64,000 bases of DNA from Squalus acanthias (lineage: Eukaryota), in contig CM059432.1 in NCBI GenBank assembly GCA_030390025.1, positions 99,512,001 to 99,576,000 on the forward strand. The letters are read 5' to 3'. Positions 31,786 through 63,187 of this stretch are shown here, one piece after another. The position numbers and the translations under genes are program-made. Position 1 is the first letter of the stretch. Every line of letters begins with the position of its first letter. The notes beneath the pieces are model-generated. The model saw only the letters and a program-made list of their open reading frames with translations, did no database searches and was not told the DNA's origin.

Positions 31786-33257
31786 TTCCTTAGTGATTTT
31801 GATCGTGTTTAGCTCCTCCCCCCCCCTATAGACCCCTGTTTGTCCAGTGTTGGGATATTCTTAGTGTCCTCTACTGTAAAGACTGATACAAAATATTCAT
31901 TCAGTGTATTTGCCATCTCCATATTTCCCACCATTAATTTCCCGGTCTCATCCTCTAAGGGACCAACATTTACTTTAGCCACCCTTTTTCTTTTTATATA
32001 ACTATAAAAACTCTTACTGTCTGTTTTTATATGTTTTGCTAATTTACTTTCATAATCTATCTTCCCTTTCTTAATCAATCTTTTTGTTATTTTTTGTTGT
32101 CTTTTAAAGTTTTCCCAATCCTCTATCCTCCCACTAGATTTGGCTACCTTATAAGCCCTTGTTTTTAGTCGAATACTATCCTTAATTTATTTGCTTAGCC
32201 ACGGATGACTGTCTTTTCTTTTACACCCTTTTCTTCTCAGTGGAATATATATTTTTTGGAAGTTGTAAAATAACTCCTTAAATGTACACCACTGATCATG
32301 TATTGTCTTACCCTTTAATCTATTTTCCCAATCCACTCTACTAAATTCCGCTCGCATACCTTCATAGTCTCCTTTATTCAAGCTTAGCATGCTTGTTTGA
32401 GATCCAACCTTCTCACCCTCTAATTGAATATGGAATTCAACCATGTTATGGTCACTCATTCCAAGGGGATCCTTTACTAGGACATTTTTAATTAATCCTG
32501 TCTCATTACACAGGACCAGATCTAAGGTTGCTTGCCCCCTGGTCGGTTCAGTTACATACTGCTCAAGAAACCAATCCCTAATACACTCAATGAACTCATC
32601 CTCAAGGCAGCCCTGCCCAATTTGATTTGTCCAATTAATATGATAGTTAAAATCCCCCATAATTATAGATGTTCCCTTATTACAAGCCTCAACTATTTCC
32701 CGATTGATACTCCGTCCAACAGAGTTGCAACTATTCGGAGGCCTATAGACTATGCCCACTAGTGTTTTTTTCCCCTTATTATTCCTTATCTCCACCCAAA
32801 CTGTTTCATTATCCTGATATTTTGACCCAATATCATTTCTCTGTATTACAGTGATTCCTTCCTTTATTAACATAGCCACCCCACCTCCCCTTCCTTCCTG
32901 CCTGTCCTTCCTGATCGTTAAATAAGCTGGTATATTTAATTCCCAGGCATTGTCACCCTGCAGCCATGTTTCTGTAATGGCCACAATATCATACCCATAT
33001 GTAGTTATTTGTGCCATTAACTCATCTATTTTGTTACGAATGCTACGTGCATTCAGATAGAGAACTTTCAAATATGTTTTGTGACACTTAGTTCCTGCTT
33101 TTGCCCTTTTTATTACTTTACCTTTTACTCCATACCTTCTGCCCCTTCATGACACACTCTGGTTTTTAATTTCCCCACTGCTACCTAAGTCTATGACCTT
33201 CTGGTGACACATTGGGATAGTTTTTCATCTTTGCCAATTGGGTATCAAACATACGAT

Positions 33258-33345
33258 AGCAAAATACTGCAGATGCTGGAAATCCGAAATAACAACAGAA
33301 AACGCTGGAAAAACTCAGCAGGCCAGGCAGCATCCGTGGAGAGAA
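33258..33345 (-). mobile_element. Short Penelope-derived repeat fragment (hammerhead portion absent)
   Basis: GAAATAACAACAGAAAACGCTGGAAAAACTCAGCAGGCCAGGCAGCATCCGTGGAGAGA identical to the body of 59336-59435. Confidence 0.8.
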
Positions 33346-34703: not shown

Positions 34704-34802
34704 GTAACGTTGCCTAGTGGTCATGGTATTGGACTAGCAACCCAAAGATTGTAGGTTCAAATCCCATTATGGTGAGTTGTGAAATAGAATTTAATAAATC
34801 TG
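34704..34802 (+). mobile_element. tRNA-derived SINE head remnant
   Basis: TGCCTAGTGG A box and GGTTCAAATCCC B box; similar to the head at 48770-48805. Confidence 0.55.
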
Positions 34803-35189
34803 CTAATTAGAGTTTAATAAATATAAGACTGACCCTCGTTACACATGGCCTTCACCTGACACAGGCAAGTGCTTGGCTCCATATCTCAGGACCCTACCCA
34901 AGGAGACAGCAGCTGGAGTGCCAGTGTCAACAGGGCAGTAAGTGACCCAATGCCATTTTCAGTCCACTACTGTCCCATTTATACCAGGCACAGCGAGTTT
35001 AAATCAGCTCTTATAATGTCAATCACTAAGAGTTTGCGATTTGGGTGTGAAAAGAAATATCGCTTGCATCTTAAGAAAGTTATAAAATGATAGGTAAATA
35101 GCATAAATATTATATCTGTGAAACTTGTATCTTTCCATATCTATGAAATATGTGATTTATTTCTTCCTCATATCAATCAAGAGGAAGAC

Positions 35190-35325
35190 TCAGAAATAAA
35201 ATCAAAATACTGCGGATGCTGGAAATCAGAAATAAAAACAGAAAATGCTGGAAAACACTCAGCAGGTCAGGAGCATCTGGAGAAAGAAACAGAGTTAACA
35301 TTTCAGGTTGATGACCTTTTATCGC
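35190..35325 (-). mobile_element. Degenerate short hammerhead retroposon copy
   Basis: Family body plus AGAGTTAACATTTCAGGTTGATGACCTTTTATC (core mutated). Confidence 0.75.
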
Positions 35326-36149
35326 AGGAAGACTCCTGCTCCTTAGACACTATTACACAAAAAAGACGCACCGCCATTTTCTCAAGGTGACTAGGGATGT
35401 GAAATAAATATGGTCTCGATGGTATCACCTCATATTTTGGGAACACATTTTTAAAACATGACATGCTGCTTCAGTAAAGTTGTGTTACAGAGATGGGGAA
35501 ACCAGGTTTAGGCTCAGTTAGGATCGTGGGAAACATCAGAAAATGTATTCCAACTCAGACTGCCTGTCAGCATTGCAATGGGAGATCTACTAATAGTTAA
35601 TGAATACTTGATCTGTGTCTGTGGCTGCGACTTTGCCGGTGCTCAGAGGGCGGGTTTGGAGGTGGGTCAGAAGTGAAAATCTAAATGATTGACGGCGGGT
35701 GGCGAACCCGCCTCCACGCAACTTTACAAAGTGTCGGGCCTGCGAGTCCTGATCAGGCCCGACACCAATCGACGGGAAACACACTTAAGGCAGTTAACAG
35801 CTTGTTAACTGCCTGGATAATCCCATTTTTCAGGCTCTTCCCATTTTAGTACATTTTCACCGTGTTGCCTGTCGTGTGACAAACACGCCAGCTGATTGTG
35901 CCGGGTTCAGCAAATACCTGAATTGTTGACAGCTGCACCTGCAGCATAAAAGTGGACCTGTAACATGGCTGACTTCCAGATGCCAGAAGTTTATGTTTTG
36001 AAGTTTTGGAACACATTTTGCAGGTCTATTGAGCTTGTAAGTGTTTAAGCTGAGATTCATATGCACTGTGACCTCCTTGGAAAACCCTCTCCCCACATTG
36101 ACTGAGCGCTTATAACATCTATTCCTCAACTGACATATATACCAGCAGA

Positions 36150-37318
36150 ATGGGAACCATTTATACCCTCTCATCCTGGTCCTCAGAATCGGAGGAAGAG
36201 CAGCCTGGGCAGTAGCAGAACCCGGCACAACAGCAGCAGCAGCAACAGGAGCGCCAACCTTCTCCTCAGCCACCTGATGATGCACAGGGCAGAAGGCGTC
36301 AGCGCAGGGCTGCACCGCACCGCAGGAGATACCCCCAACACAGGGTTTACAGGCAGAGGATGAGCTTCCTCAACATGACTGAGCAGCAGTGCCAATGAAG
36401 GCTGAGATTTACGCGAGAGGTAGTCGCTGACACCTGCGCAATGTTGCACCAACACCTGGAGCCCAGAGGAGCGGGTGGACACTCCTTACCAGTGGCTGTC
36501 AAAGTCATCACCACACTCAACTTCTTTGCTTCGGGGTCCTTCCAGGGATCAGCAGCAGACATCAACGGCATCTCCCAGTCGGCCGCACACGCTTGCATCA
36601 CGCAGGTTACCGATGCCCTCTTTGCAAAGTCGTACAATTACATCCACTTCTCCACGGATGAAGCAAGTGTAACCGCGCGTGCGGTTGGCTTTGCAAATAT
36701 GGCAGGCTTGCCAAGGGTGCAGGGCGTAATATATTGCACACATGTGGCCATTAGGGCACCCCATCACAACCCAGCTGTATTTGTCAACCGCAAGGGCTTC
36801 CACTCCCTTAACGTCCAGCTGGTATGTAACCACAGGAAGAACATTATGCATGTTTGCGCCAAGTTCCCTGGCAGTTGCCATGACTCATTCATCCTGCGGC
36901 AGTCTACTGTGCCTCAACTGTTCAATCCGCCAACCCAACTTTTGGGATGGCTACTTGGAGACAAGGGCTAACCCCTGAAGACGTGGCTAATGACACCGAT
37001 GAGGAGGCCATCAAACGAAGCTGAGGAGCGCTACAATGTGATCCACATTTCCACCAGAAGCATCATAGAGTAAACCTTCAGATGCCTCGATAGATCTGGT
37101 GGAGCCCTACTGTACTCACCAGCAAGGGTCTCCAGAATCATCGTGGTCTGTTGTGCACTGCACAACATCGCACATCAGCGTGGCTCAGGGAGGAGGAGGA
37201 GGAGGAGGATGCAGATGAGGAAGACCTTGCGGAGGCGCATGTGCCAGTTCCACCAACACACGAGCATATTGCTGGCCGTGAGGCAAGGGATACACTAATC
37301 CATGCTAGATTTGCGTAA
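36150..37318 (+). pseudogene. Harbinger DDE transposase (premature stops, deletions)
   Basis: MGTIY start; [42 protein letters not shown]. Confidence 0.93.
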
Positions 37319-37589
37319 TTTTCGCAGCAAACACATGTGGCTGGCACATGGAAATGAGTGTCTGCTGACCTTCTCAACACACCATACAGCATCTGTACAA
37401 TAAACTGTGGTTTCCTATCACTCTCACCACCATCATTACAGATGAAGGCGGCCTGAGTCCTCACTGTTCAACTTCCATTTCTGAGCACACTTAGGCCAAC
37501 TCTTTGAATCTTTGACATCGCATTTCGTAATTACAATTAAAATAACAATGAGAATCTTCACTTTGTATTAGATCAAAACACCCAAGTGA

Positions 37590-39820
37590 CTACCCTTGTG
37601 ACCATTTGTGTGTTAACTTTCTCTTACGTGTGCTTCTACATGGTGCTTCCCCTATGGTTTCAGCAGATGTTGAGGCACCTTGCTCACTTCCATGCAGCAC
37701 CTGCTTCGACACCTTTGGCAGGCGTCCTCTGGGTTTGGGATCCTGGGAGGGCTCAGCAACAGTCTGCTCCTCCTGTAGCTGTGCAGGGGCTAAGATGGCC
37801 ATTACAGTTGGGTGAGGAATCTGGGGCTCTGAGCAAGGGCTCGGCAGTGGGAGCGCTTGGAGAGGAGCCCACACTTTCTTGTTGTGGACCACCAACATCC
37901 CTCTCATGGGTCACCCGCACTTCACTGCTAGCAAATAGCTGGAGAGCACCTTGCTGCACATGAGGACCCGTCTCTGTACTGACAGTCCTCATAATGGGGA
38001 CGTCCATGTAGCTCTGGTTCCTCTCCTCAATAGATGCCCATCTATCCTCCATAGCAGACCATCTATTTAGAAGAGTCACCATGTTCATTTGCATCTGGCG
38101 ATTTATGTCCTTCATGGAGGTTGCCATCTTTTCCATGGTGGCACCTACATTCGCGATTGAGTGCACCACGGCATTGCTCATGTTTGAGATGGACTCCTCC
38201 ATTCTCTGCACACTCGCAGTTACAGTCACAGAATCACAGAATCACAGAATCCCCACAGTGCAGATAGAGGCCATTTCGGCCCATCGAGCCTGCACCGACA
38301 CATATCCCACCCTATCCCCGTAACCCTATGTATTTAATCCCCCTAACACTAAGGGTCAATTTATCATACCTAATCAACCTAACCCGCACATCTTTGGACT
38401 GTGGGAGGAAACCGGAGCACCCGGAGGAAACCCATGCAGACACGGGGAGAATGTGCAAACTCCACACAGACAGTCACCCGAGGCCAGATTCGAACCCGGG
38501 TCCCTGGCGCTGTGAGCCAACAGTGCTAACCACTATGCCACCGTGTTGCCCACAGTGGTTGCAAACTCTGTCAGAGACTCCTGCACTTGTTCCTGAAGTT
38601 ACAGCACCGCTCTCTTTCTGGATGGCCCCAGAGGAACAGCGCCCACATGCATCTGAGCAGAGCTAGGAGCGTCCCGTACCCTCCGACGAGGACTCTCCAC
38701 TGCTGTTCCTGTCTCCACCATCTGCTGATGCTCACTTGTGAGCTGTGATACACCAGGTGACAATACTAATCCATCTCGCGAATGACCCACCGAGGTGCGC
38801 GTCTCTGCGCTGGTGCTGGGTGCACTCAATTCTGCTGACACTGCGCCCTCAGAGTTTGCAGCTTCCTCTGAGGAGTCTTTTGGCTCTTCCTCCTAGACAG
38901 TGGGGAGGGGGGCTCTCGATGGTCCTGTGGGGGAGTAAAGGCATGAGTTAGACATGTGATATTAACGTAGCAGACACATCCCACTGTGCAGATGATCAGA
39001 ACTCAATCTGTATGATCATCAGATGCCATATCAGTCACTCATGCAATCTAAATGAGAGGGTTGCAAATCTATTCTGTCACCAGCTTGCCCTACTGCGCCC
39101 GTCTCTCCGTCCCCCACTTCCAGCTCCTCAGCACCTCTGACGATGTCAATAGCAGCCTCCTCAGCGGTGGTCAAGTGCGCCATGGAAAGTGGCCCTCCTG
39201 TCCTGCCTCTCTCCCTCTTATTATGGTCTCTCTTTTCCTGCAATGAGAGACACAAGTGGAGTTTGTGTGAGAATGTTGGAGTGAGTGTAGAGAATCCATA
39301 GCATAGATGCTTAGAGGGAGACAAATATGGAGTGAGGTGCCAATACCAAGGGCCCTCCCTGTGCGTTGTTAGTTGTTGTCATTGCATAACAGTGATAGCG
39401 AGTGTGAGGGGTGCCTAGTAGAATAGTGGAGTGATTCTGTACATAGAGAGAGAGGGAAGGTTAATGGTGCAAGGGATGTAAGGGTAAGTTGGGATGTGCA
39501 GGAGTAGGTTGACAATGCAGAGTGCTGCTGATGAGAGGAGATGGGGAGCAGATTGAAGGTAAGTGTGATGTTATACTCACTTTTGCTGAGCGTAGCAGAT
39601 CATTGAACCTTTTGCGGCACTGAACCCAGGTGCGTGCACACAAAGACCTGGCGCTCACCTCCTCAGCAATTTGCAGCCAGGCTGCCTTGGTTTGCTGAGG
39701 AGGCTTCCTCCGTCCATTTGACCGGAACAGAACCTCTTTGCACCCTCTCACCCACTCCACAAGAGCATAGAGGGAGTCATCATCAAATCTTGGAGAGGCC
39801 TTGGCTCATGAAGCAGTCAT
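37590..39820 (-). pseudogene. Three-exon Myb/SANT-like (MSANTD/NAIF1-type) accessory gene; exons about 39820-39581, 39237-39081, 38924-37590
   Basis: SPRFDDDSLYALVE...KAAWLQIAEEVSARSLCARTWVQCRKRFNDLLRSAK|GTGAGT; CAG|EKRDHNKRERGRTGGP...; splice sites conserved in copy B; V-SINE in exon 3. Confidence 0.88.
38227..38551 (-). mobile_element. tRNA-derived V-SINE with (ATTCTGTG)n tail
   Basis: A/B boxes and V domain nearly identical to 5684-5840; TSD ACAGT. Confidence 0.93.
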
Positions 39821-40239
39821 CTCTCTATCTGCCACTCTTAGAAGTATCAGAAAATGAATGAAAAATCACAAGGCTGCATGGGCCCCTTAAATACAGCTGA
39901 ATGGAAGACGTCAGCAGAAGCGAGCAGCAGACCCGAACCCACTGATTGGGCCGGGCAACGCGCACGACGGGCTTAATAAGCCCAGTTAAGGGAAAATAGT
40001 TAATTCAGAGCGGCTGAAACCGGCAGCGGGACTGGAACCCGCTGACCAGCCAACCCAACGCCGATGGTAAAATCACGGCCTGTAACTTTCTTTTCTGATC
40101 AAGTAGATACTTAAATCATTAGGAAACAAATACACAAGCAGTTACATCCTGTGCTGACACAAATCATCTTGTTATCATATTGAATTTTAAATATTTTAGA
40201 TAAATAACACAGAAGTGCACAGCAAGGACATCCTCTTTC

Positions 40240-41885
40240 ATGGGTCTAATGAGAGGGAGGAACTGAATGAAATCAGTATTTGTAGGGAAATGGTGTTAGG
40301 GAAATTGACGGGATTGAAGGCTGATAAATCCCCAGGGCCTGATAATCTACATCCTAGGGTACTTAAGGAAGTGGCCCTAGAAATAGTAGATGCATTGCTG
40401 GTCATCTTCCAAAATTCTATAACTCTGGAACAGTTCCCATGGATTGGAGGGTAGCTAATGTAACCCCACTATTTAAAAAAGGTGGTAGAGAGAAAATGGG
40501 GAATTATAGCCTGACATCGGAGTGGTGAAAATGCTAGAGTCCATTATAAAAGATGTAATAGCAGAGCACTTGGAAAACAGTGACAGGATCGGACAAAGTC
40601 AATATGGATTTACAAAAGGTAAATCATGCTTGACTAATCTACTGGAATTTTTTGAAGATGTAACTGGTAGAATAGATAAGGGAGAACCAGTGGATGTGGT
40701 GTATTTGGACTTCCAGAAGGCTTTCGATAAGGTCCCGCATAAGAGATTAGCATGCAAAGTTAAAGCTCACGGGATTGGGGGTAAGGTACTGTCTTGGATA
40801 GAAAACTGGTTGGCAGACAGGAAGCAAAGAGTTGGAATAAATGGGTCTTTTTCCGAGTGGCAGGCAGTGACTAGTGGGGGACCCCAGTTATTCACAATAT
40901 ATATTAATGATCTAGACGAGGGAACTAGATGTAATATCTCCAAGTTTGCAGATGACACAAAGCTGGGTGGGCGTGTGTGCTGTGAGGAGGATGCAGAGAA
41001 ACTCCAGTATGATTTGGACAGGTTGGGTGATTGGGCAGATGCATGCCAGATGCAGTATAATGTGGATAAATGCGAGGTTATCCACTTTGGTGGCAAAAAC
41101 AGGAAGGCAGATTATTATCTGAACGGCAATAGATTGGGAAAAGGGGAAGTGCAACGAGACCTGGGTGTCCTTGTGCACCAGTTGCTGAAGGTAAGCATGC
41201 AGGTGCAGCAGGCGGTTAAGAAGGCAAATGGTATGTTGGCCTTCATAGCGAGAGGATTCGAGTACAGCAGCAAGGATTGCTTGCTACAGTTGTACAGGGC
41301 CTTGGTGAGACCACACCTTGAGTATTGTGTGCAGTTTTGGTCGCCTTATCTGAGGAAGGATGTTCTTGCCATGGAGAGAGTGCAGCGAAGATTCACCAGA
41401 CTGATACCTGGGATGGCAGGAATGATGTATGAAGAGAGATTGGGTCGATTGGGCTTATATTCGCTAGAGTTTGGAAGAATGAGAGGGGATCTCATTGAAA
41501 CTTATAAAATTCTAACAGGACTAGACAGACTAGATGCAGGAAGGATGTTCCCGATGGTGGGGGAGTCCAGAACCAGGGGTCACAGTCTAAGGATAAGGGG
41601 TCGGCCATTTAGGACTGAGATGAGGAGGAATTTCTTCATCCAGAGAGTGGTGAACCTGTGGAATTCTCTACCACAGAAGACAGTTGAGTCCAATTCATTA
41701 AATATATTCAAGAAGGAGTTAGATATATTTATTAAGGCTAAGGGCATCAAGGGATATGGGGAGAAAGTAGGGACAGGGTACTGAATTTGGATGATCAGCC
41801 ATAATCGTATTGAATGGCGGAACAGGCTCGAGGGGCTGAATGGCCTACTCCTGCTCCTATCTTCTATGTTTCTATGTTTCTATAT
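40240..41885 (+). mobile_element. 5'-truncated CR1 LINE (RT ORF 40522-41784)
   Basis: KADKSPGPD, YLDFQKAFDKVPH, FADDTK, RPHLEYCVQFWSP; (TTTCTATG)n tail. Confidence 0.95.
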
Positions 41886-42376
41886 GAAAAACATGTTTCA
41901 GATATTCCTCGTCAAACTTCCTCTTTAAATGTCAATTTATAATACTTCCCAACTAGGTCTGGATATTGTAACTGATGTCATAAATTAATGCCATCAGAGT
42001 TATTTGAAAGTAGAATTGCTTGCTTGATTGGATTCTGACAGAAATCACCTCCCATGTAGACACAAGGATCTATATGTGGCATCTCATTAACTTTACAGCT
42101 GTGTGGCCCATGAGTAACATTTGAGGCTAAACCCCTGAAAGTCACAAACTATAATAATGTCTGAGAAGCAGGTGTCTACCTCATTAGAACTGGTTAAAAT
42201 CCAGCCTATTCCAACTGCATTATTACATTAGGAAGGCCTTCATTTTCAGTCTTCCAGCAGAAAGTTTGGTAATTTGCTCTATAAATGTACAAATCAGAGG
42301 CATCTTAAGTTGAAATTGAGGATTTATTCTTAAGTTGGAATCTGCATAACAGATGTTGTGCTTTGTCAATATATAT

Positions 42377-42528
42377 GCCGGGAATTTCCTCAGATTTGCT
42401 CCTGCTCTGCCACCATAACTTCGCCGGAAGAGCAGCGGAAACACCATTATGCGTGTAAACTGGGTTTCTCCACGCTTCCAGCGAAGTTGTGGTGGCGGAG
42501 CGGGAGCAGGTCTGAGGAAATTCCTGCA
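42377..42528. repeat. Fold-back MITE or long hairpin with 50-bp arms
   Basis: 42381-42430 pairs with 42475-42524 (6 mismatches). Confidence 0.85.
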
Positions 42529-42999
42529 CTCCTGCTCCACAGAAACATTTTTAAAAATTACTATTTTTTAAAAAACTCTCCTTTTGTTGGCGGCCGCTGA
42601 AGAATCCTGTGAGGGTGGGGGCAGGCCCGACTCCTGCCTTGCTCAGTGAAGACCAATTTCAGCAAGTGGGGCTAAAACAGGCATTAGGCCTCCATTTACG
42701 TAAGGAACATGAAGCATGTTTTAAGCGGCCACCAGGGACGTCTGAAAAATGCCTCGACACAATTTTGGGTCAGACGTTTTTCAGGCATCCTTGGAATGCA
42801 GGACATTGGTCCCTGAAATTGGGTTTCATTGTGCCTGTTTTACATCCAATTTCTACCCCCTAGTTTGAAAACATTTGAGTTGTAAGGAAATGCTGGAGAA
42901 ACGAAGGTTTATCAATCTCAAAAGGAGGCATTGGACAGATAATGCCGATGTGAAGCACAAACTATTTTGAAACCTGGGCCTTATTAACATGCCAGAACA

Positions 43000-45770
43000 A
43001 TCAAGGCTGGGAACTGAATATCCAGGGGTATTCAACATTCAGGAAGGATAGAATAAAAGGAAAAGGGGGTGGGGTAGCATTGCTGGCTAAAAAGGAGATT
43101 AATGCAATAGCTAGGAAGGACATTAGCTTGGAGGATGTGGAATCAATATGGGTTGAGCTGCAGAACACCAAAGGGCAGAAAACGTTAGTGGGGGTTGTGT
43201 ACAGACCTCCAAACAGTAGTAGTGAGGTGGGGGAGGGTATGAAACAGGAAATCAGAGGTGCATGCAAAAAAGGCGCAGCAGTTATCATGGGTGACTTTAA
43301 TATGCATATAGATTGGGCTACTCAAACTGGAAGCAATACGGTGGAGGAGGATTTCCTGGAGTGTTTAAGGGATGGTTTCCTAAACCAATATGTTGAGGAA
43401 CCAACTAGAGGGGAGGCCATCCTGGACTGGGTGTTGTGTAATGAGGAAGGACTAATCAGCAATCTTGTGGTGCGAGGCCCCTTGGGGAAGAGTGACCATA
43501 GTATGGTGGAGTTCTACATTAGAATGGAGAAGGAAACAGTTAATTCAGAGACCATGGTCCAGAACTTAAATAAGGGCAACTTTGAGGGTATGAGGCATGA
43601 ATTGGCGCGGTTAGATTGGCAAGCGATATTTAAGGGGTTATCAGTGGAAGGGCAATGGCAGACATTTAGAGATCGCATGGATGAACTACAGCAATTGTAC
43701 ATCCCTGTCTGGCGTAAAAATAAAAAAGGGAAGGTGGCTCAACCATGGCTAACAAGGGAAATCAGGGATAGTTTTAAAAGCAAGGAAGTGGCATACAAAT
43801 TGGCCAGAAGTAGCAGCAAACCCGGGGACTGGGAGAACTTTAAAACTCAGCAGAGGAGGACGAAGGGTTTGATTAGGGCAGGGAAAATAAAATATGAAAG
43901 GAAGCTTGTGGAGAACATTAAAACGGACTGCAAAAGCTTCTATAAATATGTAAAAAGAAAGAGGTTAGTAAAAACAAACGTAGGTCCCCTGCAGTCAGAA
44001 ACAGGGGAAGTCATAATGGGGAACAAAGAAATGGCAGATCAATTGAACAAGTACTTTGGTTCGGTGTTTACTGTGGAGGACACAAACAACCTTCCGGAAA
44101 TAAAAGAGATCAAAGGATCTGGTAAGAGGGAGGAGCTGAGGGAAATCCTTATCAGTCGGGAAAAGGTGTTGGGGAAATTGATGGGACTGAAGGCTGATAA
44201 ATCCCCAGGGCCTGATGGTCTGCATCCCAGAGTACTTAAGGAGGTGGCCTTGGAAATAGTGGATGCATTGACGATCATTTTCCAACATTCCTTAGACTCT
44301 GGATCAGTTCTGAAGGAGTGGAGGGTGGCTAATGTAACCCCTCTTTTTAAAAAAGGAGGGAGGGAGAAAGCAGCCTGACATCGGTGGTGGGTAAAATGAT
44401 GGAATCAATTATTAAAGATGTCATAACAGACCATTTGGAAAGTGGCGACATGATAGGTCCAAGTCAGCATGGATTTGTGAAAGGGAAATCATGCTTGACA
44501 AATCTTCTGGAATTTTTTGAGGATGTTTCCAATAGGGTGGACGGGGGGGAACCAGTAGATGTGGTGTATTTGGACTTTCAGAAGGCCTTCGACAAGGTCC
44601 CACACAAGAGATTGGTGTGCAAAGTTAAAGCACATGGGATTGGGGGTAATGTGTTGATGTGGATTGAGAACTGGTTGGCACACAGGAAACAAAGAGTAGG
44701 AGTAAATGGGTACTTTTCAGAATGGCAGGCAGTGACCAGCGGGGTACCGCAGGGTTCGGTGCTGGTGCCCCAGCTGTTTACATTATATATTAATGATTTG
44801 GACGAAGGGATTAATTGTAATATCTCCAAATTTGTGGATGACACTAAATTGGGAGGCAGTGTGAACAATGAGGAGAATGCTAGGAGGCTACAGAGTGACT
44901 TGGACAGGTTGGGTGAATGGGCAAATGTACGGCAGATGAAGTACAATGTGGATAAATGTGAGATTATCCACTTTGGTGGTAAAAATAGGGAGGCAGACTA
45001 TTACCTGAATGGTGGCAGATTAGGGAAAGGGGAGGTGCAACGAGACCTGGGCATCATGGTACATCAGTCACTGAAGGTGGGAAGGCAAGTGCAGCAGGCA
45101 GTCAAGAAAGCAAATGGCATGATGGCCTTCATAGCAAGGGGATTTGAGTACAGGAGTAGGGAGGTGATGCTACAGTTGTACAGGGCCTTGGTGAGGCCAC
45201 ACCTGGAGTATTGTGTGCAGTTTTGGTCTCCTAACTTGAGGAAGGACATTCTTGCTATTGAGGGAGTGCAACGAAGGTTCACTAGATTGATTCCGGGGAT
45301 GGCCAGACTGACATATCAAGAAAGACTGGATCAACTGAACTTGTATCCTCTGGAGTTCAGCAGAATGAGGGGGGATCTTATAGAGACGTTTAAAATCCTG
45401 ACTGGTTTAGACAAATTAGATGCGGGCAGAATGTTTCCAATGTTAGGGAAAACTAAAACCAGGGGTCACAGTCTAAGGATAAAGGGGAAGCCATTTAAGA
45501 CTGAGATGAGGAGGAACTTCTTCACCCAGAGAGTGGTGAATCTGTGGAATTCTCTACCACAGAAGGTTGTTGAGGCCAGTTCGCTAAATATATTCAAAAG
45601 GGAGTTAGATATAATACTCACAACTAGGGGGATCAAGGGGTATGGCGAGAAAGCAGGAATGGGGTACTGAGGTAGCATGTTCAGCCATGAACGCATTAAA
45701 TGGCGGTGCAGGCTCGAAGGACCGAATGGTCTACTCCTGCACCTATTTTCTATGTTTCTATGTTTCTATG
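43000..45770 (+). mobile_element. CR1 LINE, near complete ORF2 (APE C-terminal part + RT) with a frameshifting deletion at about 44372
   Basis: ORFs 43080-44378 (YRPP, GDFN, SDH) and 44384-45670 (RT); (TTTCTATG)n tail. Confidence 0.96.
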
Positions 45771-46063: not shown

Positions 46064-48805
46064 ATTTACTTTTTTATTCATTCATGGGAAGTCCAGCATT
46101 TATTGCCCATCCCTAATTGCCCTTGAAGATGGTGGTGAGCCGCCTTCTTTAACTGCTGCAGTCCATGTGGTGAAGGTACTCCCACAGTGCTGTTAGGGAG
46201 GGAGTTCCAGGATTTTGACCCAGCGACGATGAAGGAACTGCGATATACTTATAAGTCAGGATGATGTGTAACTTGGAGAGGAACTTCGAGCTGGTGGTGT
46301 TCCCATGCGCCTGCTGCCTTTGTCCTTCTAGGGGTAGAGGTCACGGGTTTGGGAGGTGCTGCCGAAGAAGCCTTGGTGAGTTGCTGCAGTGCATCTTGTA
46401 GACGGTACACACTGCAGCCACGGTGTGCCGGTGGTGGAGGGAGTGAATGTTTAAGGTGGTGGATGGGGTGCCAGTCATGTGGGCTGCTTTGTCCTGGATG
46501 TTGTCGAGCTTCTTGAGTGTTGTTGGAGATGCACTCATCCAGGCAAGTGGACAGTATTCCATCACACTCCTTACTTGTGCCTTGTAGATGGTGGAAATGC
46601 TTGGGGAGTCAGGAGGTGAGACATTTTCCGCAGAATACCTAGCCTCTGACCTGCTCTTGTAGCCATAGTATTTATGTGGCTGGTCCAGTAAAATTTCTGG
46701 TCAACAGTGACCCCCAGGATGTTGATGGTGGGGGATTCGGCAATGGTAATGCCGCTGAATGTCAAGGGGCAGTGGTTAGATTCTCGCTTGTTGGAGATAG
46801 TTATTGCCTGGCACTTGTGCGGCGCGAATGTTACCTGCCACTTATCAGCCCAAGCCTGAATGTCGCCCAGGTCTTGTTGCATGTGGGCAGGTACTGCTTC
46901 ATTATCTGAGGAGGTGCGAATGGCATTGAACACTGTGCAGTCATCAGCGAACATCACCATTTCTGACCTTTTGTTGGAGGGAAGGTCATTGATGAAGCAG
47001 CTGAAGATGGCTAGGCCTAGGACACTGCGCTGAGGAACTCTTGCAGCGATGTCCTGGGGCTGTGATGATTGACCTTTAATCACCACAACCATCTTCCTTT
47101 GTGCTAGGTATGACACCAGCCAATGAAGCGTTTCCCCCCCGATTCCCAATGACTTCAGTTTTACTAGGGCTCCTTGATGCCAGACTCGGTCAAATGCTGC
47201 CTTGATGTCAAGGGCAGTCACTCTCACCTCACCTCTGGAATTCAACTCCTTTGTTCATGTTTGGACCAAGGCTGTAATGAGGTCTGGAGCCGAGTGGTCC
47301 TGGCACAACCCAAACTGGGCATCAGTGAGCAGGTTATTGGTGAGTAAGTACCGCTTGATAGCACTGTCGATGACACCTTCCATCACTTTGCTGATGATTG
47401 AGAACAGACTGATGGGGCAGTAATTGGCCAGATTGGATTTGTGAACAGGACATACCTGGGCAGTTTTCCAGATTGTCGGATAGATGTCAGTGTTGTAGCT
47501 GTACTGGAATAGCTTGGCTAGAGGCGCGGCTAGTTCTGGAGCACAAGTCTTCAGCACGATAGCCGGGATGTTGTCGGGGCCCATAGCCTTTGCTGTATCC
47601 AGTGCGCTCAGCCGTTTCTTGATATCACGTGGAGTGAATCGAATTGGCTGAAGACTGGCTTCTGTATTGAACCAGGTTTGGTCCCCTGGCTTGATAATGT
47701 TAGAGTGAGGAATATGCCGGGCCATGAGATTACAGATTGTGGTGGAATACAATTGTGCTGCTGCTGATGGCCCACAGCGCCTCATGGATGCCCAGTTTTG
47801 AGCTGCTAGATCTGTTCTGAATTTATCCCATTTAGCACGGTGGTAGTGCCACACAACACGATGGAGGGTGTCCTCAGTGTGAAGACAGGACTTTGTCTCC
47901 ACAATGACTGTGCAGTGGTCACTGCTACCAATGTTGTCCTGGACAGATACATCTGCGACAGGTAGATTGGTGAGGACGAGGTCAAGTAGGTTTTTCCCTC
48001 ATGTTGGTTCTCTCACCACCTGTCGCAGGTCCAGACTGGCAGCTATGTCCTTCAGGACTCAGCCAGTTCAGTCAGTAGTGGTGCTACCGAGCCACTCTTG
48101 GTGATGGACATTGAAGTGCCCCACCCAGAGTACATTCTGTGCCCTTGCTACTCTCAGTGCTTCTTCCAAGTGGTGTTCAACATGGAGGAGTACTGATTCA
48201 TCAGCTGAGGGAGGGCAGTAGGTGGTAATCAGCAGGAGGTTTCCTTGCCCATGCTTGACCTGAAGCCATGGAACTTCATGGGGTCCGGAGTCAATGTTGA
48301 GGACTCCCAGGGCCACTCCTTCCTGACTGTATACCACTGTGGGTATGTCCTATCCCACAGGTATGGTGATGGAGGAGTTTGGGACATTGGCTGAAAGGTA
48401 TGATTCTGTGAGTATGACTAGTCTGTGGGACAGCTCTCCCAATTTTGGCACTAGTCCCCAGATGTTGGTGAGGAGGACTTTGCAGTGGGCTGGGTGTGCC
48501 GTTGTCGTGTCCGTAGCCGGCGCCGAGGTCGATGTGTCGGGTGGTCCATCTGGTTTTATTCTTATTATTGTTTTTTGTAGCGGTTTTTTACAACTGAGTG
48601 GCTTGCTAGGCCATTTCAGAGGGCAGTTAAATGTCAACCACATTGCTGTGGGTCTGGAGTCACATATAGATAGGCCAGAACAGGTAAGAATGGCAGATTT
48701 CTTTCCCTGCAGGAGATCACTGGTTATTACCTCATGTAACAGGACATTAGTGAACCAGATTCTGGATTACTAGTCCAGTAACATAACTACTATGCTACCG
48801 TTCCC
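46064..48805 (-). mobile_element. CR1-group LINE of a second lineage (APE + RT, decayed) with tRNA/SINE-like 5' end
   Basis: LLTNIWGL..ILTESYL, TYCPPS, GHFNVHHQEWLGS, AMGPDNIP, ALDIKAAFDRVWH, MFADDCT; 3' end AAGGGCAATTAGGGATGGGCAATAAATGCTGG. Confidence 0.9.
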
Positions 48806-53180: not shown

Positions 53181-53831
53181 CTTTACAGCTGAAATAGATG
53201 CATAGCAGTGAGCTTTCCTATAAAAAGAAAATACTGGAAGTACTCAGAGAAAGAGTGCAAGACAGAAAGAGAGAGAGAGATAGAGAGACTTAGGGCTCAA
53301 TTTTAATAACCCTGAGGAGGTGGGTTTGGAGGTGGGTCGGCAGCGAAAATCGGAAAAAATGGCTTCAGTCACCCAACCCACCTCAATCCCGCCCCCATGC
53401 GATTTTCGTGAGTGTCGGGTCAGCCGCTCCCAAACTGACCCGACTGGAACCGGTGGGACAGGTTGTTAAGGCAGTTAGTAGCCTGTTAACTGCCTTGCTA
53501 ATCCTATTTTGATAGTGGTTTCCCATTTTTGTGCTTCTGGCTCCTGTTTCCCATCTTGTCAGAAACAGGCCACCTGCAAGGAGACGAGTTTCTCGAGGAC
53601 ATGATTTGTTGTCATTGGTGCAGCACTTTAAAAGCGCTCCTGTAACATGGCTGACATTCAAATGCAACAACTTTGATGTTGGAGGTTTGGGATAAGATTT
53701 TACAAATCTACTGGCCTTGTGGCTGTTCAAGCTGACACCCATCTGCAGTGTTACCTGATTGGAATAATTTCAGGCCACTTTGAGTGTGCGCTTGCAAGCT
53801 TCTTGCCTCAAGTGAAATTTATAGCAATGGT

Positions 53832-55085
53832 ATGGGGACCATTTATATCCTCTCATCCTGGTCGTCAGATTCGGAGGAAGAGCAGCCGCGGCAGTACCAC
53901 AACCAGCCACAACAGCAGCACCAGCACCAGGAGCGCCAAACTCCTCCTCACCCACCTGATGATGCACAAGGCAGTGGCCATCAGTGCAGGGCTGCACCTC
54001 GCCACAGGAGATACCTCCAACACCGGGTTTACAGGCAGAGGATCAGCTTCCTGAGCATGACTGAACAGCAGTGCCAAAGGAGGCTGAGACTTTCGAGAGA
54101 GGTAGTCGCTGACATCTGCGCAATGCTGCACCAACACCTGGAGCCCAGAGGAGCGGGTGGACACTCCTTACCAGTGGCTGTCAAAGTCACCACCGCACTC
54201 AACTTCTTTGCTTCGAGCTACTTCCAGGGATCAGCTGTAGACATCAGCGGCATCTCCCAGTCGGCCGCACACACTTGAATCACGCAGGCTACCGACGCCC
54301 TCTTTGCAAAGGCACACAATTACATCCACTTCTCCACAGATGGCCCAAATGATACCGCGTGTGCAGTTGGCTTTGCCAATATGGTAGGCTTGCCAATGGT
54401 GCAGGGCGTCATAGACTGCACACATGTAGCCATGAGGGCCCCCTATCACAACCCAGCTGTATTTGTCAACCGCAAGGGATTCCACTCCCTGAATGCCCAG
54501 CTGGTGTGTAACCACAGGAAAATCATCATGCATGTTTGCGCAAAGTACCCTGGCAGTTGCCATGACTCGTTCATCCTGCGCCAGTCTACTGTGCCTCAGC
54601 TCTTCCATCCGCCAACTCAACTTTCTGGATGGCTTCTTGGCGACAAGGGCTATCCCCTGAAAAAGTGGCTTTTGACACCGATGAGGAGGCCATCAAACGA
54701 TGCCGAGGAGCGGTACAATGTGAGTCACATATCCACCAGAAGCATCATCGAGCAAACCATCGGCTTGCTCAAAATGCGCTTCTGATGCCTGGACAGATCT
54801 GGAGGAGCCTTGCAGTATACACCAGCCAGGATGTCCAGAATTGTCGTGGTCTGCTGTGCCCTGCACAGCATCACACAGCAGTGCGGCTTAGTGCTGCCGG
54901 AAGAACAAGTGGCTCAGCACACAGCCTCCTCAGAAGAAGAGGACGAAGAGGAGAATGAGGAGGAGGATGAGGAAGAGGACGAGGAGCAACGCCTTGCGGG
55001 GCCGGATGTGGCCAATCTAGCAGCATGCGACCACATTGCTGGCCGTCAGGCAAGGGATGCACTCATCCATGCCAGATTCGCGTAA
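53832..55085 (+). pseudogene. Harbinger DDE transposase, full length, in-frame stops at about 54276 and 54783
   Basis: Catalytic motifs IDCTH, GDKGY and IEQTIG all present; acidic C-terminal tail. Confidence 0.93.
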
Positions 55086-55274
55086 GCTTACGCTTGAACC
55101 ACAAGTGGCTGGCACATGGAGATGAATATAAGTCTGACACTCTCAAAACCCCAGGCATCATCTGCCCAATAAACGATGGTTTGCGCTCAGTGTCACCACC
55201 ATCATTCTAAATGGAATTCTCCCTGAGCCCTCACTCTTGAACTTCCATTTCCCAGAACACAGAGGTCACACATA

Positions 55275-55498
55275 GGTGATCTCAGCAGATCATTAAACTG
55301 AACCCATGTGCATCTGCACACAAAGCTTGAACTCACCTCCTCAGCAACTTGCAGCCAAGCTGCCTTGGTTTGCTGAGGAGGCCTCCTCCTTCCATTTCCA
55401 GGGGAGAGAACCTCCTGATGTCCTCTAACTCTCTCCACAGGAGCATAGAGGGAGCCCTCATTGAACCTGGGTGCAGCCTTAGTTTTTGTGGCTGCCAT
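55275..55498 (-). pseudogene. Myb/SANT-like gene exon 1 remnant
   Basis: MAATKTKAAPRFNEGSLYA...KAAWLQVAEEVS...TWVQFNDLLRS. Confidence 0.85.
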
Positions 55499-55834
55499 TC
55501 CTGCAGCAGCCAGCACTTTTAACAGAAAAAAGCTAATGCTTCTGCAAAGGGGACATGGCCCCTTTAAATCTTTACTGAAACAACACATCATCAGAGGCGA
55601 GAATCTGACACTGCAAGCAATTGCCTGGAGGGACCCGCACATCGGCCGGAACGAGGCCAATCAAACCTAAAATCTGATCAGCGGGGCGGCAGCAACCAGG
55701 AGCGCCGTCAACCCGCCTCCTTCATTAAAATCGAGCCCATACAGAGAGAGACAGATACAGAAAGGGAGAGAGGCTGACAGTGAGAGAGAACGCGTCAGAG
55801 AGAGATAAAATGTGAGACAGGACTACCAGCAACT

Positions 55835-55885
55835 GAAAAGAGAAACAATAGGTTAACGTTTCAGATAGAGACCATTCGTTAGAAT
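55835..55885 (-). mobile_element. Degenerate hammerhead portion of a short retroposon (5' body probably at about 53225-53250, split by copy C)
   Basis: Minus strand CTAACGAatggtctctatctGAAACgttaacc. Confidence 0.55.
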
Positions 55886-57789: not shown

Positions 57790-58460
57790 ATGAAAGATGA
57801 CATTCCAGAGAGGCTAGCATGTTTCAGACCATACTTGCAAACCTTGACATATTTACCTGACAGTGAATACAGACAACTGCCTCAGTTTGTTGTCATCTGC
57901 AGCAACACCTACAGCCAAATTGCAACATAGGGATGGCACTGCCAGTGGTTGGCACTATCACCACTGCCCTCAACTGCTATGCCTGTAGTTCATTCCTAGC
58001 TACCACTATTTGCTAATGTGCTGCTCGCACATGAATCAAACAGGTGACAGGCGCATTGGTCAGCAAGATCAGTGCCTTCATCTTCTTTCCCACTGAATAG
58101 CTTGAGACAACTGCCGAAGCAGAAGGGGTTGCTGATGGTTGCCATATGTTCAAACTGAGTGCCCTGGGTGTTTTCAATTCTTGGATAAATCTGGTGGAGC
58201 CGTGCAATGCAGCCCAGTGAGTATGTCCAGAATCCCTGGAACATGCTGCATACTACATAACATCATGAGGAAGAAAGGCTTGTTGTTTGTGCAAGCTGAA
58301 GACGATAATGATGAAGAAGAGGGAGTGGATGGCCCTCACTCCCCACAGCAGGGGGAGGGCACACAGGAAGGATTAGATGTGGGATATAACAGCCAGCATC
58401 CCCAAAGAAAAGAGAATGCAGCATATAGCCTGGTGCTTTCGATAAGTAAAGGTTGACTCA
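57790..58460 (+). pseudogene. Old, heavily decayed Harbinger transposase
   Basis: FRPYLQTLTYLPDSEY, LDKSGGAVQCSPVSMSRI..CCILHNI, acidic tail. Confidence 0.65.
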
Positions 58461-59335
58461 TTATATAAAAAAACTGCTTGTTCTCCTCACAAAGGCTCAC
58501 TGTCAAAGAATTCTGCCAAATTGCTTCAAGGAAGAAATCTACATTTCCCCAGCCATCATAAAGCTCCCAAAAGCTGAAAGCATATACAGAAATGATTGAT
58601 GTGCACGAGCCTTGTTTAATATACAAAGTAACATTCACCAAAAATTGCCAAAAATTCCACTTGTGCCATTTCTTAACACTGTATCTAACCTATGTGCCAG
58701 CTAGTAAATTGCTCGGGCTCCTATTTTACTTTTACGAGGTGCCCCCTGAATGAGACGAGGTTGAGTGGTGAGCAGCTGAGATGATTCTCCAAGAAGGCCG
58801 CAATTTTGCCAGCACTCAGAGGGTGGGTTTGGAGGTGGGTCCCGAGTTAAAATCAAAATGATTGATGGCGGGTTGTTAACCCACTGCGAACCCGCCTCCA
58901 CGCAACTTTACAATGTGTCGAGTCTGCGAGTTCCGATCAGACCTGACACCAAGCGGTGGGAGAGCCACTTAAGGCAGTTAACAGCTTGTTAACTGCCTGG
59001 ATAATCCTATTTTATGAGGCTCTTCCCATTTTGCAACATTTTCAACGTGTTGCACGTCGTGCGACAAACACACCAGCTGATTGTGCCGGGTTCAGCAACT
59101 ACCTGAATTCTTGACAGCTGCTCCTGCAGTATAAAAGCAGACCTGGAACATGGCTGACTTTCAGATGCCAGAACTTTGTGTTTTGAGGTTTTGGAACACA
59201 TTTTGCAGGTCTATTGAGCTTGTAAGTGTTTAAGCTGAGATTCATATACACTGTGATCTCCTTGGAATACCCTGTCCCCATATTGACTGAGTGCTTGTAA
59301 CATCTATTCCTCAACTGACATATATACCAGCAGAA

Positions 59336-59435
59336 ATAACAACAGAAAACGCTGGAAAAACTCAGCAGGCCAGGCAGCATCCGTGGAGAGAGAAAGAGAG
59401 TTAACGTTTCAGGTCGATGACCTTTCGTCAGAACT
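59336..59435 (-). mobile_element. About 100-bp non-autonomous hammerhead retroposon
   Basis: TSD (T)ATATACCAGCAGAA on both sides; the empty site is visible in copy A at 36136-36150. Confidence 0.92.
59399..59435 (-). ncRNA. Minimal type-I hammerhead ribozyme
   Basis: Minus strand AGUU CUGACGA A AGGUC-auc-GACCU GAAA CG UU AACU; intact core, palindromic AACGUU stem III. Confidence 0.85.
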
Positions 59436-59448
59436 ATATACCAGCAGA

Positions 59449-60675
59449 ATGGGAACCATTTATACCCTCTCATCCTAGTCCTCAGAGTCAGAGGAAGAGC
59501 AGCCTGGGCAGTAGCAGAACCAGGCACAACAGCAGCAGCAACAATAGGAGCGCCAACCTTCTCCTCACCCACCTGATGCTGCACAGGGCAGAAGGCGTCA
59601 GCGCAGGGCTGCACCTCAACGCAGGAGATTCCCCCAACACCGGGTTTACAGGCAGAGGATGAGCTTCCTCAACATGACTGAGCAGCAGTGCCAAAGGAGG
59701 CTGAGACTTTCACGAGAGGTAGTCGCTGACATCTGTGCAATGTTGCACCAACACCTGCAGCCCAGAGGAGCAGGTGGACACTCCTTACCAGTGGCTGTCA
59801 AAGTCATCACCGCACTGAACTTCTTTGCTTCAGGGTCCTTCCAGGGATCAGCAGCAGACATCAGCGGCATCTCCCAGTCAGCCGCACACAGTTGCATCAC
59901 GCAGGTTACCGATGCCCTCTTTGCAAAGTCGCACAATTACATCCACTTCTCCACGGATGAAGCAAGTATTACCGCGCATGCGGTTGGCTTTGCAAATATG
60001 GCAGGCTTGCCAAGGGTGCAGGGCATCATAGACTGCACACATGTGGCCATTAGGGCACCCCATCACAACCCAGCTGTATTTGTGAACCGCAAGGGCTTCC
60101 ACTCCCTTAACATCCAGCTGGTGTGTAACCACAGGAAGAACATTATGCATGTTTGCGCCAAGTTCCCTGGCAGTTGCCATGACTCATTCATCCTGCGGCA
60201 GTCTACTGTGCCTCAGCTGTTCAATCTGCCCTTGCAACTTTCTGGATGGCTGCTTGGAGACAAGGGCTATCCCCTGAAGACATGGCTAATGACACCGATG
60301 AGGAGGCCATCAAACGAAGCTGAGGAGCGCTACAATGAGAGCCACATTTCCACCAGAAGCATCATAGAGCAAACCATCGGCTTGCTTAAAATGCGATTCA
60401 GATGCCTCGACAGATCTGTTGGAGCCCTACAGTAAGCACCAGCCAGGGTCTCCAGAATCATCGTGGTCTGCTGTGCCCTGCACAACATCGCACAGCAGCG
60501 TGGCTTACCGCTGCCTGAGGAACAAGTTGCTCAGCGCACAGCCTCCTCAGAAGAGGAGGAGGAGGAGGCAGATTAGGAAGACCATGCAGAGGCGCATGTG
60601 CCAGTTCTACCAGCACACGAGCACATTGCTGGCCATGAGGCAAGGGATGCACCAATCCAGACCTGATTCGTGTAA
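59449..60675 (+). pseudogene. Harbinger DDE transposase (258-aa intact catalytic core at 59659-60435, stops on either side)
   Basis: [22 protein letters not shown]. Confidence 0.93.
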
Positions 60676-60948
60676 CTTTACGCAGCAAACACATGTGGCT
60701 GGCAAATGGAAATGAGTGTCTGCCGACCTTCTTAACACACCATACAGCATCTGTACAATAAACTGTGGGTTCCTATCACTCTCACCACCATCATTACAGA
60801 TGAAAGGCATCTGGACCCCTCACTATTCAACTTCCATTTCTGACCACACATAGGCCAACTCTTTGAATTTGTGACATCGCATTTCTTTAATACAATTGAA
60901 ACAACGATGAGAAACGTAACTTTGTATTAGATCAAAACACCCAAGTGA

Positions 60949-62830
60949 CTACCCTTGTGACCATTTGTGTGTTAACTTTCTCTTACGCGTGCTTCTACAT
61001 GGTGCTTCCCCAGTGGCTTCAGCAGATGTAGAGGCACCTTGCTAACTTTTATACTGCACCTGCTTCGATGCCTTTGGCAGGTGTCCTCTGGGATTGGCAG
61101 CTGTGCAGGGGCTGAGATGGGTGAGGAATATGGGGCTCTGACCGAGGGCTCTGCTGTGGCATGGGAGTGTGAGCGCTAGGAGAGGAGCCCACACTTTCTT
61201 GTTGTCGACCACCAAAATCCCTCTCATGGGTCACCCACACTTCACTGCTAGCAAGTAGCTGGAGCTGCACATCAGTGGGGCCATGAGGACCCGTCTCTGT
61301 ACTGACAGGCCTCATAACGGGGACGTCCATGTACCTCTGGTGTCTCTCCTCAATAGATGCCCATCTCTCCTCCATAGCAGACCATCTATTTAGAAGAGTC
61401 ACCATGTTCATTTGAGTCTGGCGAGTTATTTCCTCCATGCAGGTTGCCATCCTTTCCATGGCGGCACCTATATTCGCCATTGCGTGCACCACGGCATTGC
61501 TCATGTTTGAGATGGACTCCTCCATTCTCTGCACACTTGTAGTTACCATAGATGCACGAGTCGGAGAATCCTGCACTTGTTGCTGAAGTTCCAGCACTGC
61601 CCTCTTTCTGGATGGCCCCAGAGGCAAAGGGTCCACATGCAGCTGAGCAGAGCTAGGAGTGCCCTGCGGCCTCCAATGAGGACTCTCCACTGCTGTCCCC
61701 ATCTCCACCATCTGCTGATGCTCACTTGTGAGCTGTGATACACCAGGTGACAACACTAATCCATCTCACGAATGACCCACCGAGGTGTGCGTCTTTGCGC
61801 TGGTACTGGGTGCGCTCATTTCTGCTGATGCTGCGCCTTCAGAGGCTGCAGGTTCCTCTGAGTCTTCCAGCTCTTCCTCCTGGACAGTGGGGAGGGGGGC
61901 TCTCGATGGTCCTGTGGGGGAGTAAAGGCATGAGTTAGACATCTGATATTAACGTAGCAGACGCATCCCATTGTGCAGATGATCAGAACTCAATCTGCAT
62001 GAACATCAGATGCCATATCAGTCACTCATGCAATCTAAATGAGAGGGTTACAAATCTATTCTGTCACCAGCTTGCTCTACTGAGCCCATCTGACCGTCCC
62101 CCACTTCCAGCTCCTCCGCACCTCTGACGATCTCGATAGCTGCCTCCTCAGCGGTGGTTAATTGCGCCATGGAAGGTGGCCCTCCTCCTGTCCTGCCCTC
62201 TCCCTCTTATTGTGGGCTCTCTTTTCCTGCAATGAGGGAGACAAGTGGAGTTTGAGCGAGAATGTTGGACTGAGTTTTGAGAATCCATAGCATAAATGCT
62301 TAGAGGGAGATAAAGATGGAGTGAGGTGCCAATACCAAGGGCCCTCCCTGTGCGTTGTCAGTTGTTGTCATTGCATAACAGTGATAGCGAGTGTGAGGGG
62401 TGCATAGTAGAATGGTGGAGTGATTCTGTACATAGAGAGAGAGGGATGGCTAAGGGTGCAAGGAATGTAAGGGTAAGTTGGGATGTGCAGGAGTAGGTTG
62501 ACAATGCAGAATGCTGGTGATGAAAGGAGATGGGGAGCAGATTGAAGGTAAGTGTGATGTTATACTCACTTTTGCTGAGTGTAGCAGATCATTGAACCTT
62601 TTGTGGCACTGAACCCAGGTGCAACCACACAAAGACCTGGCGCTCACCTCCTCAGCAATTTGTAGCCAGGCTGCCTTGGTTTGCTGAGGAGGCTTCCTAC
62701 ATCCATTGGAGGGAAACAGAACGTCCTTGCGCCCTCTCACTCCCTCCACAAGAGCCTGGAGGGAGTTCATCATCAAATCGGGGAGAAGCCTTGGCTCTTG
62801 AAGCAGTCAGCTCGCTATCAGGAATACTGA
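60949..62830 (-). pseudogene. Three-exon Myb/SANT-like accessory gene; exons about 62830-62570, 62226-62068, 61911-60949
   Basis: KAAWLQIAEEVSARSLCGCTWVQCHKRFNDLLHSAK|GTGAGT; splice sites identical to copy A; coiled-coil-like SVQRMEESISNMSNAVVH; basic C-terminus. Confidence 0.88.
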
Positions 62831-63187
62831 GAAGCAGCAGAATTTGAATGAAATACCAAAACTGCATGGGCCCCTTAAATGCAGATGAATCGAAGATGTC
62901 AGCAGAGGCGAGCAGCAGACCCGAACCCACTGATTGGGCCGGGTAACGCGCACAGCGGGCTTAATAAACCCAGTTAAGTCAAAATTGTTATTTCAGCGTG
63001 GCTGAAACCGGCAGCAGGACCAGAACACACCTAGCAGCCAACCCGATGCGAACCCGCCTTCGATGGCAAAATCGCGGCCTAAAGACCCAAGCTGATTCTT
63101 ATTTTAGGGAAGCTAGTGTCCCTGAGGGACCAGCTTCCAGTAGCCTTACAGTTGCAGTTGAAAGGGTTTTCCAAGCCTATATCTGAA

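Follow-up and report, generated by a model that had tools for sequence, protein, structure and literature searches.

Analysis of a 64-kb stretch of DNA (hereafter the window) revealed that a 99-bp insert on the minus strand (59336-59434) is a real, young insertion into a dead DNA transposon, and that it is probably the severely 5'-truncated terminal-repeat (pLTR) end of a very abundant Penelope-like (PLE) family. The insert is the tail-less short form of a hammerhead-bearing repeat family; it most likely represents, in clean form, a type of element already known and not a novel parasite. A first-pass annotation of the same DNA had described it as an intact, retrozyme-like element mobilized by Penelope-type machinery. 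Retrotransposition by such machinery is supported by the truncated, tailed and inverted forms of the family. The word intact is not supported, because the family continues 5' of stem I of the hammerhead and 36 nt further 3', and the retrozyme-like label is not supported either, given the lack of any fixed head-to-tail junction of a 100-135-nt unit in the window and among the joints listed from public sequencing runs.

The insert lies between the two copies of an exact 15-bp direct repeat (59321-59335 and 59435-59449, 99 bp between them); no other exact repeat of at least 15 bp in the window has its copies spaced 100-130 bp apart. The earlier estimate of a 99-100 bp insert with a 14-15 bp target site duplication was therefore borne out. 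The last three bases of the left duplication (59333-59335) are also family sequence; the first base of the right duplication, 59435, is the family's next base too, and its last base, 59449, is the A of a transposase ATG. The microhomology at the 5' end of the insert is 1 nt (59435, common to target and family), and that at the 3' end is 3 nt (59333-59335), followed by a mismatch and then one match. The 3-nt value was obtained from a sibling at 33 kb, of which 59 out of 59 bases are identical to the insert, and from the loose-end consensus of the public runs; the 5-nt microhomology proposed previously holds only against the diverged copy at 35 kb. The insert has a GC content of 47% and five intact CpG sites.

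Alignment of three Harbinger-type copies in the window confirmed the uninterrupted site that had been noticed in copy A: 114 bp are absent from this copy and the 15-mer is present once (36136-36150). This empty site is paralogous, not allelic. Copy B also lacks the 114 bp, but it is more distant and diverged at the site. The perfect duplication and the paralogous empty site together fix both junctions to the base. Among the contig pieces listed from public runs, none spans an insertion junction, and joints that skip about 114 bases in runs X1, X2 and X6 may represent other Harbinger copies.

The host is Harbinger-type copy C on the plus strand (58795-63080, approximate extent as judged by likeness to copy A, about 87-89%), and the flanks in copy A are about 90-94% identical to copy C. 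It contains a transposase pseudogene (59449-60600, plus strand, end approximate; DDE_Tnp_4, E 1e-33) with five in-frame stops. The insert does lie just before the transposase ATG (59449-59451), as had been claimed; the A of this ATG is the last base of the duplication, and the frame reaches the DDE_Tnp_4 domain. Since the ATG was left intact and the frame carries five stops, the insertion is without evident consequence. The stop at codon 22 is common to copies A and C, while other copies carry a sense base there (row 59512, nearly all depth, four runs). A stop shared by A and C and rare in the family indicates that the transposase was probably dead before the insertion, and it hints that the two copies descend from one dead copy. 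The start codon as an insertion target was considered and rejected, the evidence from a single event being wanting.

A predicted minimal type I hammerhead motif occupies 59399-59435 on the minus strand, where it is matched by a hammerhead descriptor. Stem I comprises 4 bp (59435-59432 paired with 59402-59399), the fourth of which uses 59435. The core extends from C3 (59431) to A9 (59425) and is followed by an extra A at 59424; stem II comprises 5 bp (59423-59411) and is closed by an A-U pair (59423/59411). G12, A15.1, U16.1 and U17 correspond to 59410, 59407, 59404 and 59403, and the cut is predicted between 59403 and 59402, which is 67-70 nt from the short-form 3' end of the insert. The motif thus has a type I core, stems I and II and an NUH triplet, and it lies on the sense strand near the 3' end of the terminal repeat. 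The first-pass annotation had described a complete minimal hammerhead with a palindromic stem III; the motif and the 5-bp stem II stand, but stem III proper is only the 4-nt palindrome A15.1-C-G-U16.1 (a two-base CG in place of stem III) with a GUU triplet. A GUU triplet is cut slower than GUC. GUU is among the active NUH cleavage sites as described in the cited part of PMC3138052, and the G10.1-C11.1 pair, here A-U, is highly conserved but not invariant in minimal hammerheads as far as the relevant section of PMC4209133 goes.

The hammerhead descriptor found two sites in the window (the insert and 28573-28539) and none in any of 200 block shuffles. Rfam hammerhead models gave no match at the gathering score over the whole window or at E up to 10 over 171 bases. 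The predicted minimum-energy fold of the monomer (-9.1 kcal/mol, compared with -6.4 for the hammerhead fold) pairs the core with the palindrome instead of forming stems I and II, and the predicted minimum-energy folds of both monomer and dimer differ from the active fold. Folding z-scores were not significant for the four stretches analyzed (-1.49 to +0.56). The hammerhead-like layout is a prediction from sequence, and apart from the A-U pair the motif fits the minimal hammerheads of metazoan PLEs, for which the portion of PMC4209133 at hand reports no cutting as monomers and weak cutting as dimers. The hammerhead of the insert is most likely a passenger, and a lone, promoter-less copy most likely does nothing. 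Additionally, the whole insert (59333-59434, minus strand) can be read as one open frame, 34 codons long; it contains an ATG located 19 nt beyond the predicted cut, and the frame would continue from there through the family tail. PLE ORFs often start inside the pLTR. A protein search with the 40-codon frame across the insert obtained two candidates, neither at E 0.01 or better, which is weak evidence; we do not regard the frame as coding.

BLAST search with the insert against the window identified five more family pieces at four loci (E < 0.001); weaker matches (E > 0.001) at 22126-22154 and 11478-11492 and matches to GA repeats were dropped. The sibling at 35192-35325 (minus strand, 134 bp) is a long form: its start falls at the hammerhead core or close to it, it extends 36 nt past the 3' end of the insert, and it is flanked by a 10-bp duplication (35182-35191 and 35326-35335). 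The 3' ends of the short form and of this long form fall in the same T-rich word. The identical sibling at 33260-33344 (minus strand) lacks the hammerhead, begins 11 nt downstream of the predicted cut and carries about 25 nt of tail. The tail is thus optional in the family: the 35-kb sibling has 36 nt of it and the 33-kb sibling about 25 nt, whereas the insert has none. Two family pieces at 8369-8508 lie head to head, an inverted arrangement typical of PLE insertions; the sense arm of this pair begins within stem II. A diverged relative with a decayed core lies at 55826-55884 (minus strand), its likeness beginning at the position that corresponds to 59433. No convincing duplications were found around the siblings at 33, 8 and 55 kb.

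In insert coordinates, the 5' starts of the six pieces at five loci are 59434, about 59425-59431, 59433, 59417, 59391 and 59381, so that three of the six begin within about 6 nt of stem I; none starts or ends at the predicted cut (59403/59402). These six starts, the head-to-head pair and the opposite-strand joints described below constitute variable 5' truncation with inverted 5' copies. The insert itself starts at stem I, as the earlier description had it, and this start seems to recur in the family. No match to the upstream family motif was found in the window at up to 3 mismatches, and no head-to-tail units of 100-135 nt were found within the window.

To characterize the family outside the window, we used 20 public runs from eight organisms that cover part of 58000-60500, all of which are contigs and none of which is recorded as RNA. 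Run X1 may be the source sample, and run X19 is RNA by guess only and may include DNA, so it was not counted as evidence of transcription. Four of the 20 runs were aligned on 59180-59600 at 85% likeness (20,840, 28,084, 36,692 and 1,883 contigs). The family is very abundant and common to organisms A and B: in three DNA-type runs, the summed depth, which is not a copy number, is 3-11 million over the insert and about 4,000-200,000 in adjoining Harbinger bins. Loose ends at 59435 (483, 635, 694 and 86 in the four runs) have consensus strings that open with the same 16 letters in 4/4 runs, which indicates that the family continues 5' of stem I, although the upstream strings agree poorly over 30 letters (0.41-0.50). 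The loose ends that lie before 59333 (123, 178 and 283) lead into the tail consensus in all three DNA-type runs, showing that 59333-59335 are common to target and family and giving the 3-nt microhomology. Furthermore, opposite-strand joints touch 59431-59435 in 4/4 runs.

Among the rows listed, loose ends are also frequent at 59434 (161, 246 and 267) and, in run X2, at 59433 (189), far above a rough mean of 7-14 for each of the remaining rows if an even split over 833 rows is assumed. This pile at 59433-59434 is partly an edge effect, because the reference leaves the family there and terminal mismatches inflate the counts. The summed depth does not drop from the 3' part towards the hammerhead. 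No loose end was found at the predicted cut among the rows listed, and the contig table of the four runs contains no position with an accumulation of molecule starts or ends. Among the joints listed, those that place short units head to tail are single contigs with unlike spacers of 2-39 letters and depths of 10-35, and no conserved head-to-tail junction of a 100-135-nt unit was present among them over the 421 bases covered, a span in which a longer monomer is invisible. One 5'-to-3' junction of the short unit was seen in both runs of organism A. Exact-pattern scans of viral, metagenome and prokaryotic collections found the family at 0 loci in 6/6 cases, as expected for an animal repeat. Our literature search found no paper naming the family, which repeat databases and paper supplements may already list.

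A second PLE family is represented in the window by a young, 5'-truncated copy at 28483-31245 (minus strand), which lies inside a CR1-type LINE and is flanked by an 8-bp duplication. Its open frame is 778 codons long, contains RVT_1 (E 1.5e-8) and GIY-YIG (E 1.2e-4) domains and is nearest to RT/GIY-YIG clusters in the Atlas (0.98). The cysteine motif between the RT and the nuclease, compared with the description in the cited part of PMC8557442, suggests that it may belong to the Neptune clade. This copy carries a minimal hammerhead as well (28573-28539), at a distance of 56 nt from the 3' end, compared with 67-70 nt in the insert. The layout of the two is the same, and their likeness is at shuffle level (189 and 15 of 200 shuffles reach the scores), for which reason the second PLE was rejected as the direct parent of the insert; it might still act in trans on the insert family. 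An autonomous Penelope with the terminal sequence of the insert had been proposed as a check, and none was found: no RT or GIY-YIG frame was linked to the insert family in the window, in the collection scans or in the protein search, the PLE of the window being of another family. We also observed that the second PLE sits in frame in the LINE, forming a hybrid frame of 983 codons (28909-31860) with CR1-RT and PLE parts.

The reading of the insert as a truncated PLE end is supported by the upstream continuation of the family, the optional tail, the varied 5' starts, the head-to-head pair and the opposite-strand joints. It also draws on the traits of minimal hammerheads (the extra base between 9 and 10.1, the palindromic 15.2-16.2 and the short stem I) and on the presence in the window of a bona fide PLE with a matching layout. 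According to the cited parts of PMC8557442 and PMC3846280, strong 5' truncation is characteristic of PLE insertions, many of which have an inverted 5' copy, and a tail of 30-40 bp is optional. Such an insertion would begin with a longer family RNA, as implied by the upstream continuation seen in the runs, bound by a putative PLE RT/GIY-YIG protein. The presumed enzyme would nick the target at staggered positions 15 nt apart, the distance given by the duplication and the empty site. The nicked plus strand, with three matching bases at the junction, would then prime cDNA synthesis at one of two internal start sites separated by 36 nt, namely the upstream site, and thereby produce the tail-less form; both 3' ends were observed, and the priming step is modelled on PAc, the PLE of Anolis carolinensis. 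Reverse transcription would pass through the uncut hammerhead and stop or be joined at the foot of stem I, where one base is shared, and repair would yield the duplication. Several points count against this reading: no RT or GIY-YIG frame was linked to the family in the searches described above, the upstream consensus has low agreement, the 10.1-11.1 pair is A-U where G-C is usual, and the 15-bp duplication is longer than the reported 8-10 bp (the three duplications in the window are 15 bp for the insert, 10 bp for the 35-kb sibling and 8 bp for the second PLE). Additionally, random truncation predicts no clustering of 5' ends, and the apparent clustering at stem I therefore counts against it.

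This apparent clustering is the basis of the strongest alternative, according to which the family is copied mainly from a short RNA with its 5' end at stem I, the 100- or 135-bp product being a preferred unit. It would be a SINE-like passenger of PLE machinery, which comes close to the first-pass annotation except that no circles are involved. The cause could be a start site, a processing step or a barrier to the RT just upstream, such as a splice-site complex or a lariat. We consider this alternative unlikely on the whole, and we would give equally modest credence to its more specific form, in which splicing or processing next to a splice-acceptor-like site, and not ribozyme cleavage or random truncation, would set the 5' end of very many 100- or 135-bp insertions. 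The concentration of 5' ends at 59430-59435 in the runs and near stem I in three of the six window pieces agrees with it, and so does the depth that fails to fall from the 3' part towards the hammerhead. The pile of loose ends nevertheless adjoins the edge between reference and family, where terminal mismatches inflate it, and the strings of run X2 at 59433 and 59434 bear a partial resemblance to the sequence with which the family continues. On the element strand, the upstream consensus resembles a splice acceptor, with a candidate branch motif, a stretch of pyrimidines and an AG that places its G at 59434, but the branch-like motif lies only about 10 nt from the AG. A branch motif about 10 nt from the AG is unusually close. 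Furthermore, no distinct upstream exon follows 59433, and no position with many molecule starts or ends was seen in the run contigs, which cannot show RNA ends. Because an RT travels 3' to 5' along the RNA, it would reach the 3' side of the stems first, and stalling at hairpins would thus fail to explain stops at the 5' foot. In D. virilis, the end of the Penelope intron maps to the 5' end of helix I, as given in the cited parts of PMC4209133 (for the intron, PMC2377424). We treat the clustering of 5' ends at stem I, together with the splice-acceptor-like site, as no more than a lead.

Much less probable than this is an origin as a monomer of a non-LTR retrozyme, released from tandem arrays by paired hammerheads, circularized and re-inserted. 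According to the accessible part of a 2026 preprint (bioRxiv 10.64898/2026.07.22.740005), PLE pLTRs gave rise to retrozymes, which leave monomers and are present in a chondrichthyan with a mean length of 363 bp, and a few contigs of the runs do link two units, 5' end to 3' end. These joints have spacers of 2-39 letters and depths of 10-35 against a family depth of millions. Neither the six window pieces nor the loose-end rows listed contain a copy end at the predicted cut, no head-to-tail units of 100-135 nt each with a complete hammerhead were found in the window or among the joints listed, and the motif is minimal, whereas the retrozymes in the cited part of PMC7229834 carry canonical type I motifs. 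The slightest chance is given to an insert that is the tail of a tRNA-SINE or of a CR1/L2 LINE and bears the hammerhead motif incidentally. Such SINEs and LINEs are present in the window, and the length of the duplication would suit a LINE, as LINE-type insertions commonly have duplications of about 15 bp. This origin, which the first-pass annotation had named as one that would refute its reading, was looked for and not found: there was no tRNA match at the insert, and when the insert was compared with the tRNA-headed repeat of the window and with three 3' ends of CR1 type, the scores were at shuffle level (109-183 of 200 shuffles reach them). The insert has no poly(A) or short tandem tail, and 0 of 200 shuffles produce the hammerhead motif.

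The truncated-PLE reading places the insert beside several known systems. The pLTRs with minimal hammerheads (Cervera and De la Pena, 2014; PMC4209133) are, in the parts of the paper relating to them, of type I without a real stem III, with a palindromic 15.2-16.2, an extra base between 9 and 10.1 and a short stem I, as in the insert; they are mostly dispersed single copies thought to be truncated PLEs and reach thousands per genome in coelacanth and Xenopus. The insert differs from them in its A-U pair at 10.1-11.1 and its 5-bp stem II, and cartilaginous fish are not named in those parts. PAc, the Poseidon-type PLE of Anolis carolinensis (Frangieh et al., 2024; PMC11167929), is described in the cited part as having a hammerhead upstream of two RT start sites and an uncut ribozyme in its insertions; its tail is the stretch between the two internal start sites, and the uncut RNA is the substrate. 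The optional tail of 30-40 nt is shared with the insert family. PAc primes without homology at AT-rich sites and has its start sites in an AC-rich stem-loop, whereas the insert has three matching bases and ends in T-rich words, and no ORF is linked to its family.

Solo pLTRs of Penelope in Adineta vaga (Arkhipova et al., 2013; PMC3846280) resemble the insert, as far as the cited part describes them, in being solo repeats with an optional tail (31 bp), head-to-head copies and duplications proved by an empty site; they measure 181-218 bp with reported duplications of 8-10 bp, compared with 99 bp and 15 bp here. Non-LTR retrozymes (Cervera and De la Pena, 2020; PMC7229834; Li et al., 2026) are likewise non-coding, hammerhead-bearing and PLE-related, with longer duplications and dispersed monomers. 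In the portions cited of PMC7229834 and bioRxiv 10.64898/2026.07.22.740005, they are tandem units with complete hammerheads and circular RNAs; the insert family has no fixed tandem junction and varied ends, and its unit is shorter than the reported 170-400 nt. The preprint (bioRxiv 10.64898/2026.07.22.740005) proposes, in the part available, that retrozymes derive from PLEs and lack autonomy, and a chondrichthyan is among their reported hosts, so that even a full retrozyme reading of the insert would concern a kind already described.

The insert contributes a family from vertebrates that receive little attention in the hammerhead papers cited here. If the clustering of ends is real, it would bear on how PLE insertions end at the 5' side, on why PLEs retain introns and on the role of the hammerhead, and the abundance of the family would make the counting of junctions informative. 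A 5' boundary at stem I set by splicing or processing, if true, would describe a promoter-less, SINE-like Penelope passenger and would tie the handling of introns by PLEs to insertion length. The window is rich in other repeats. A tRNA-like head, probably that of a SINE, was found at 34712-34767 on the plus strand (Rfam tRNA, 32.5 bits), and fragments of LINE RT and endonuclease at 40252-45769 and 46085-47998, two of which are in tandem (40.2-41.9 kb and 42.9-45.8 kb). The three related Harbinger-type copies lie within 28 kb (35623-40081, 53292-55490 and 58795-63080), and more DDE_Tnp_4 and Myb/SANT fragments were detected at about 1 kb and about 9 kb of the window.
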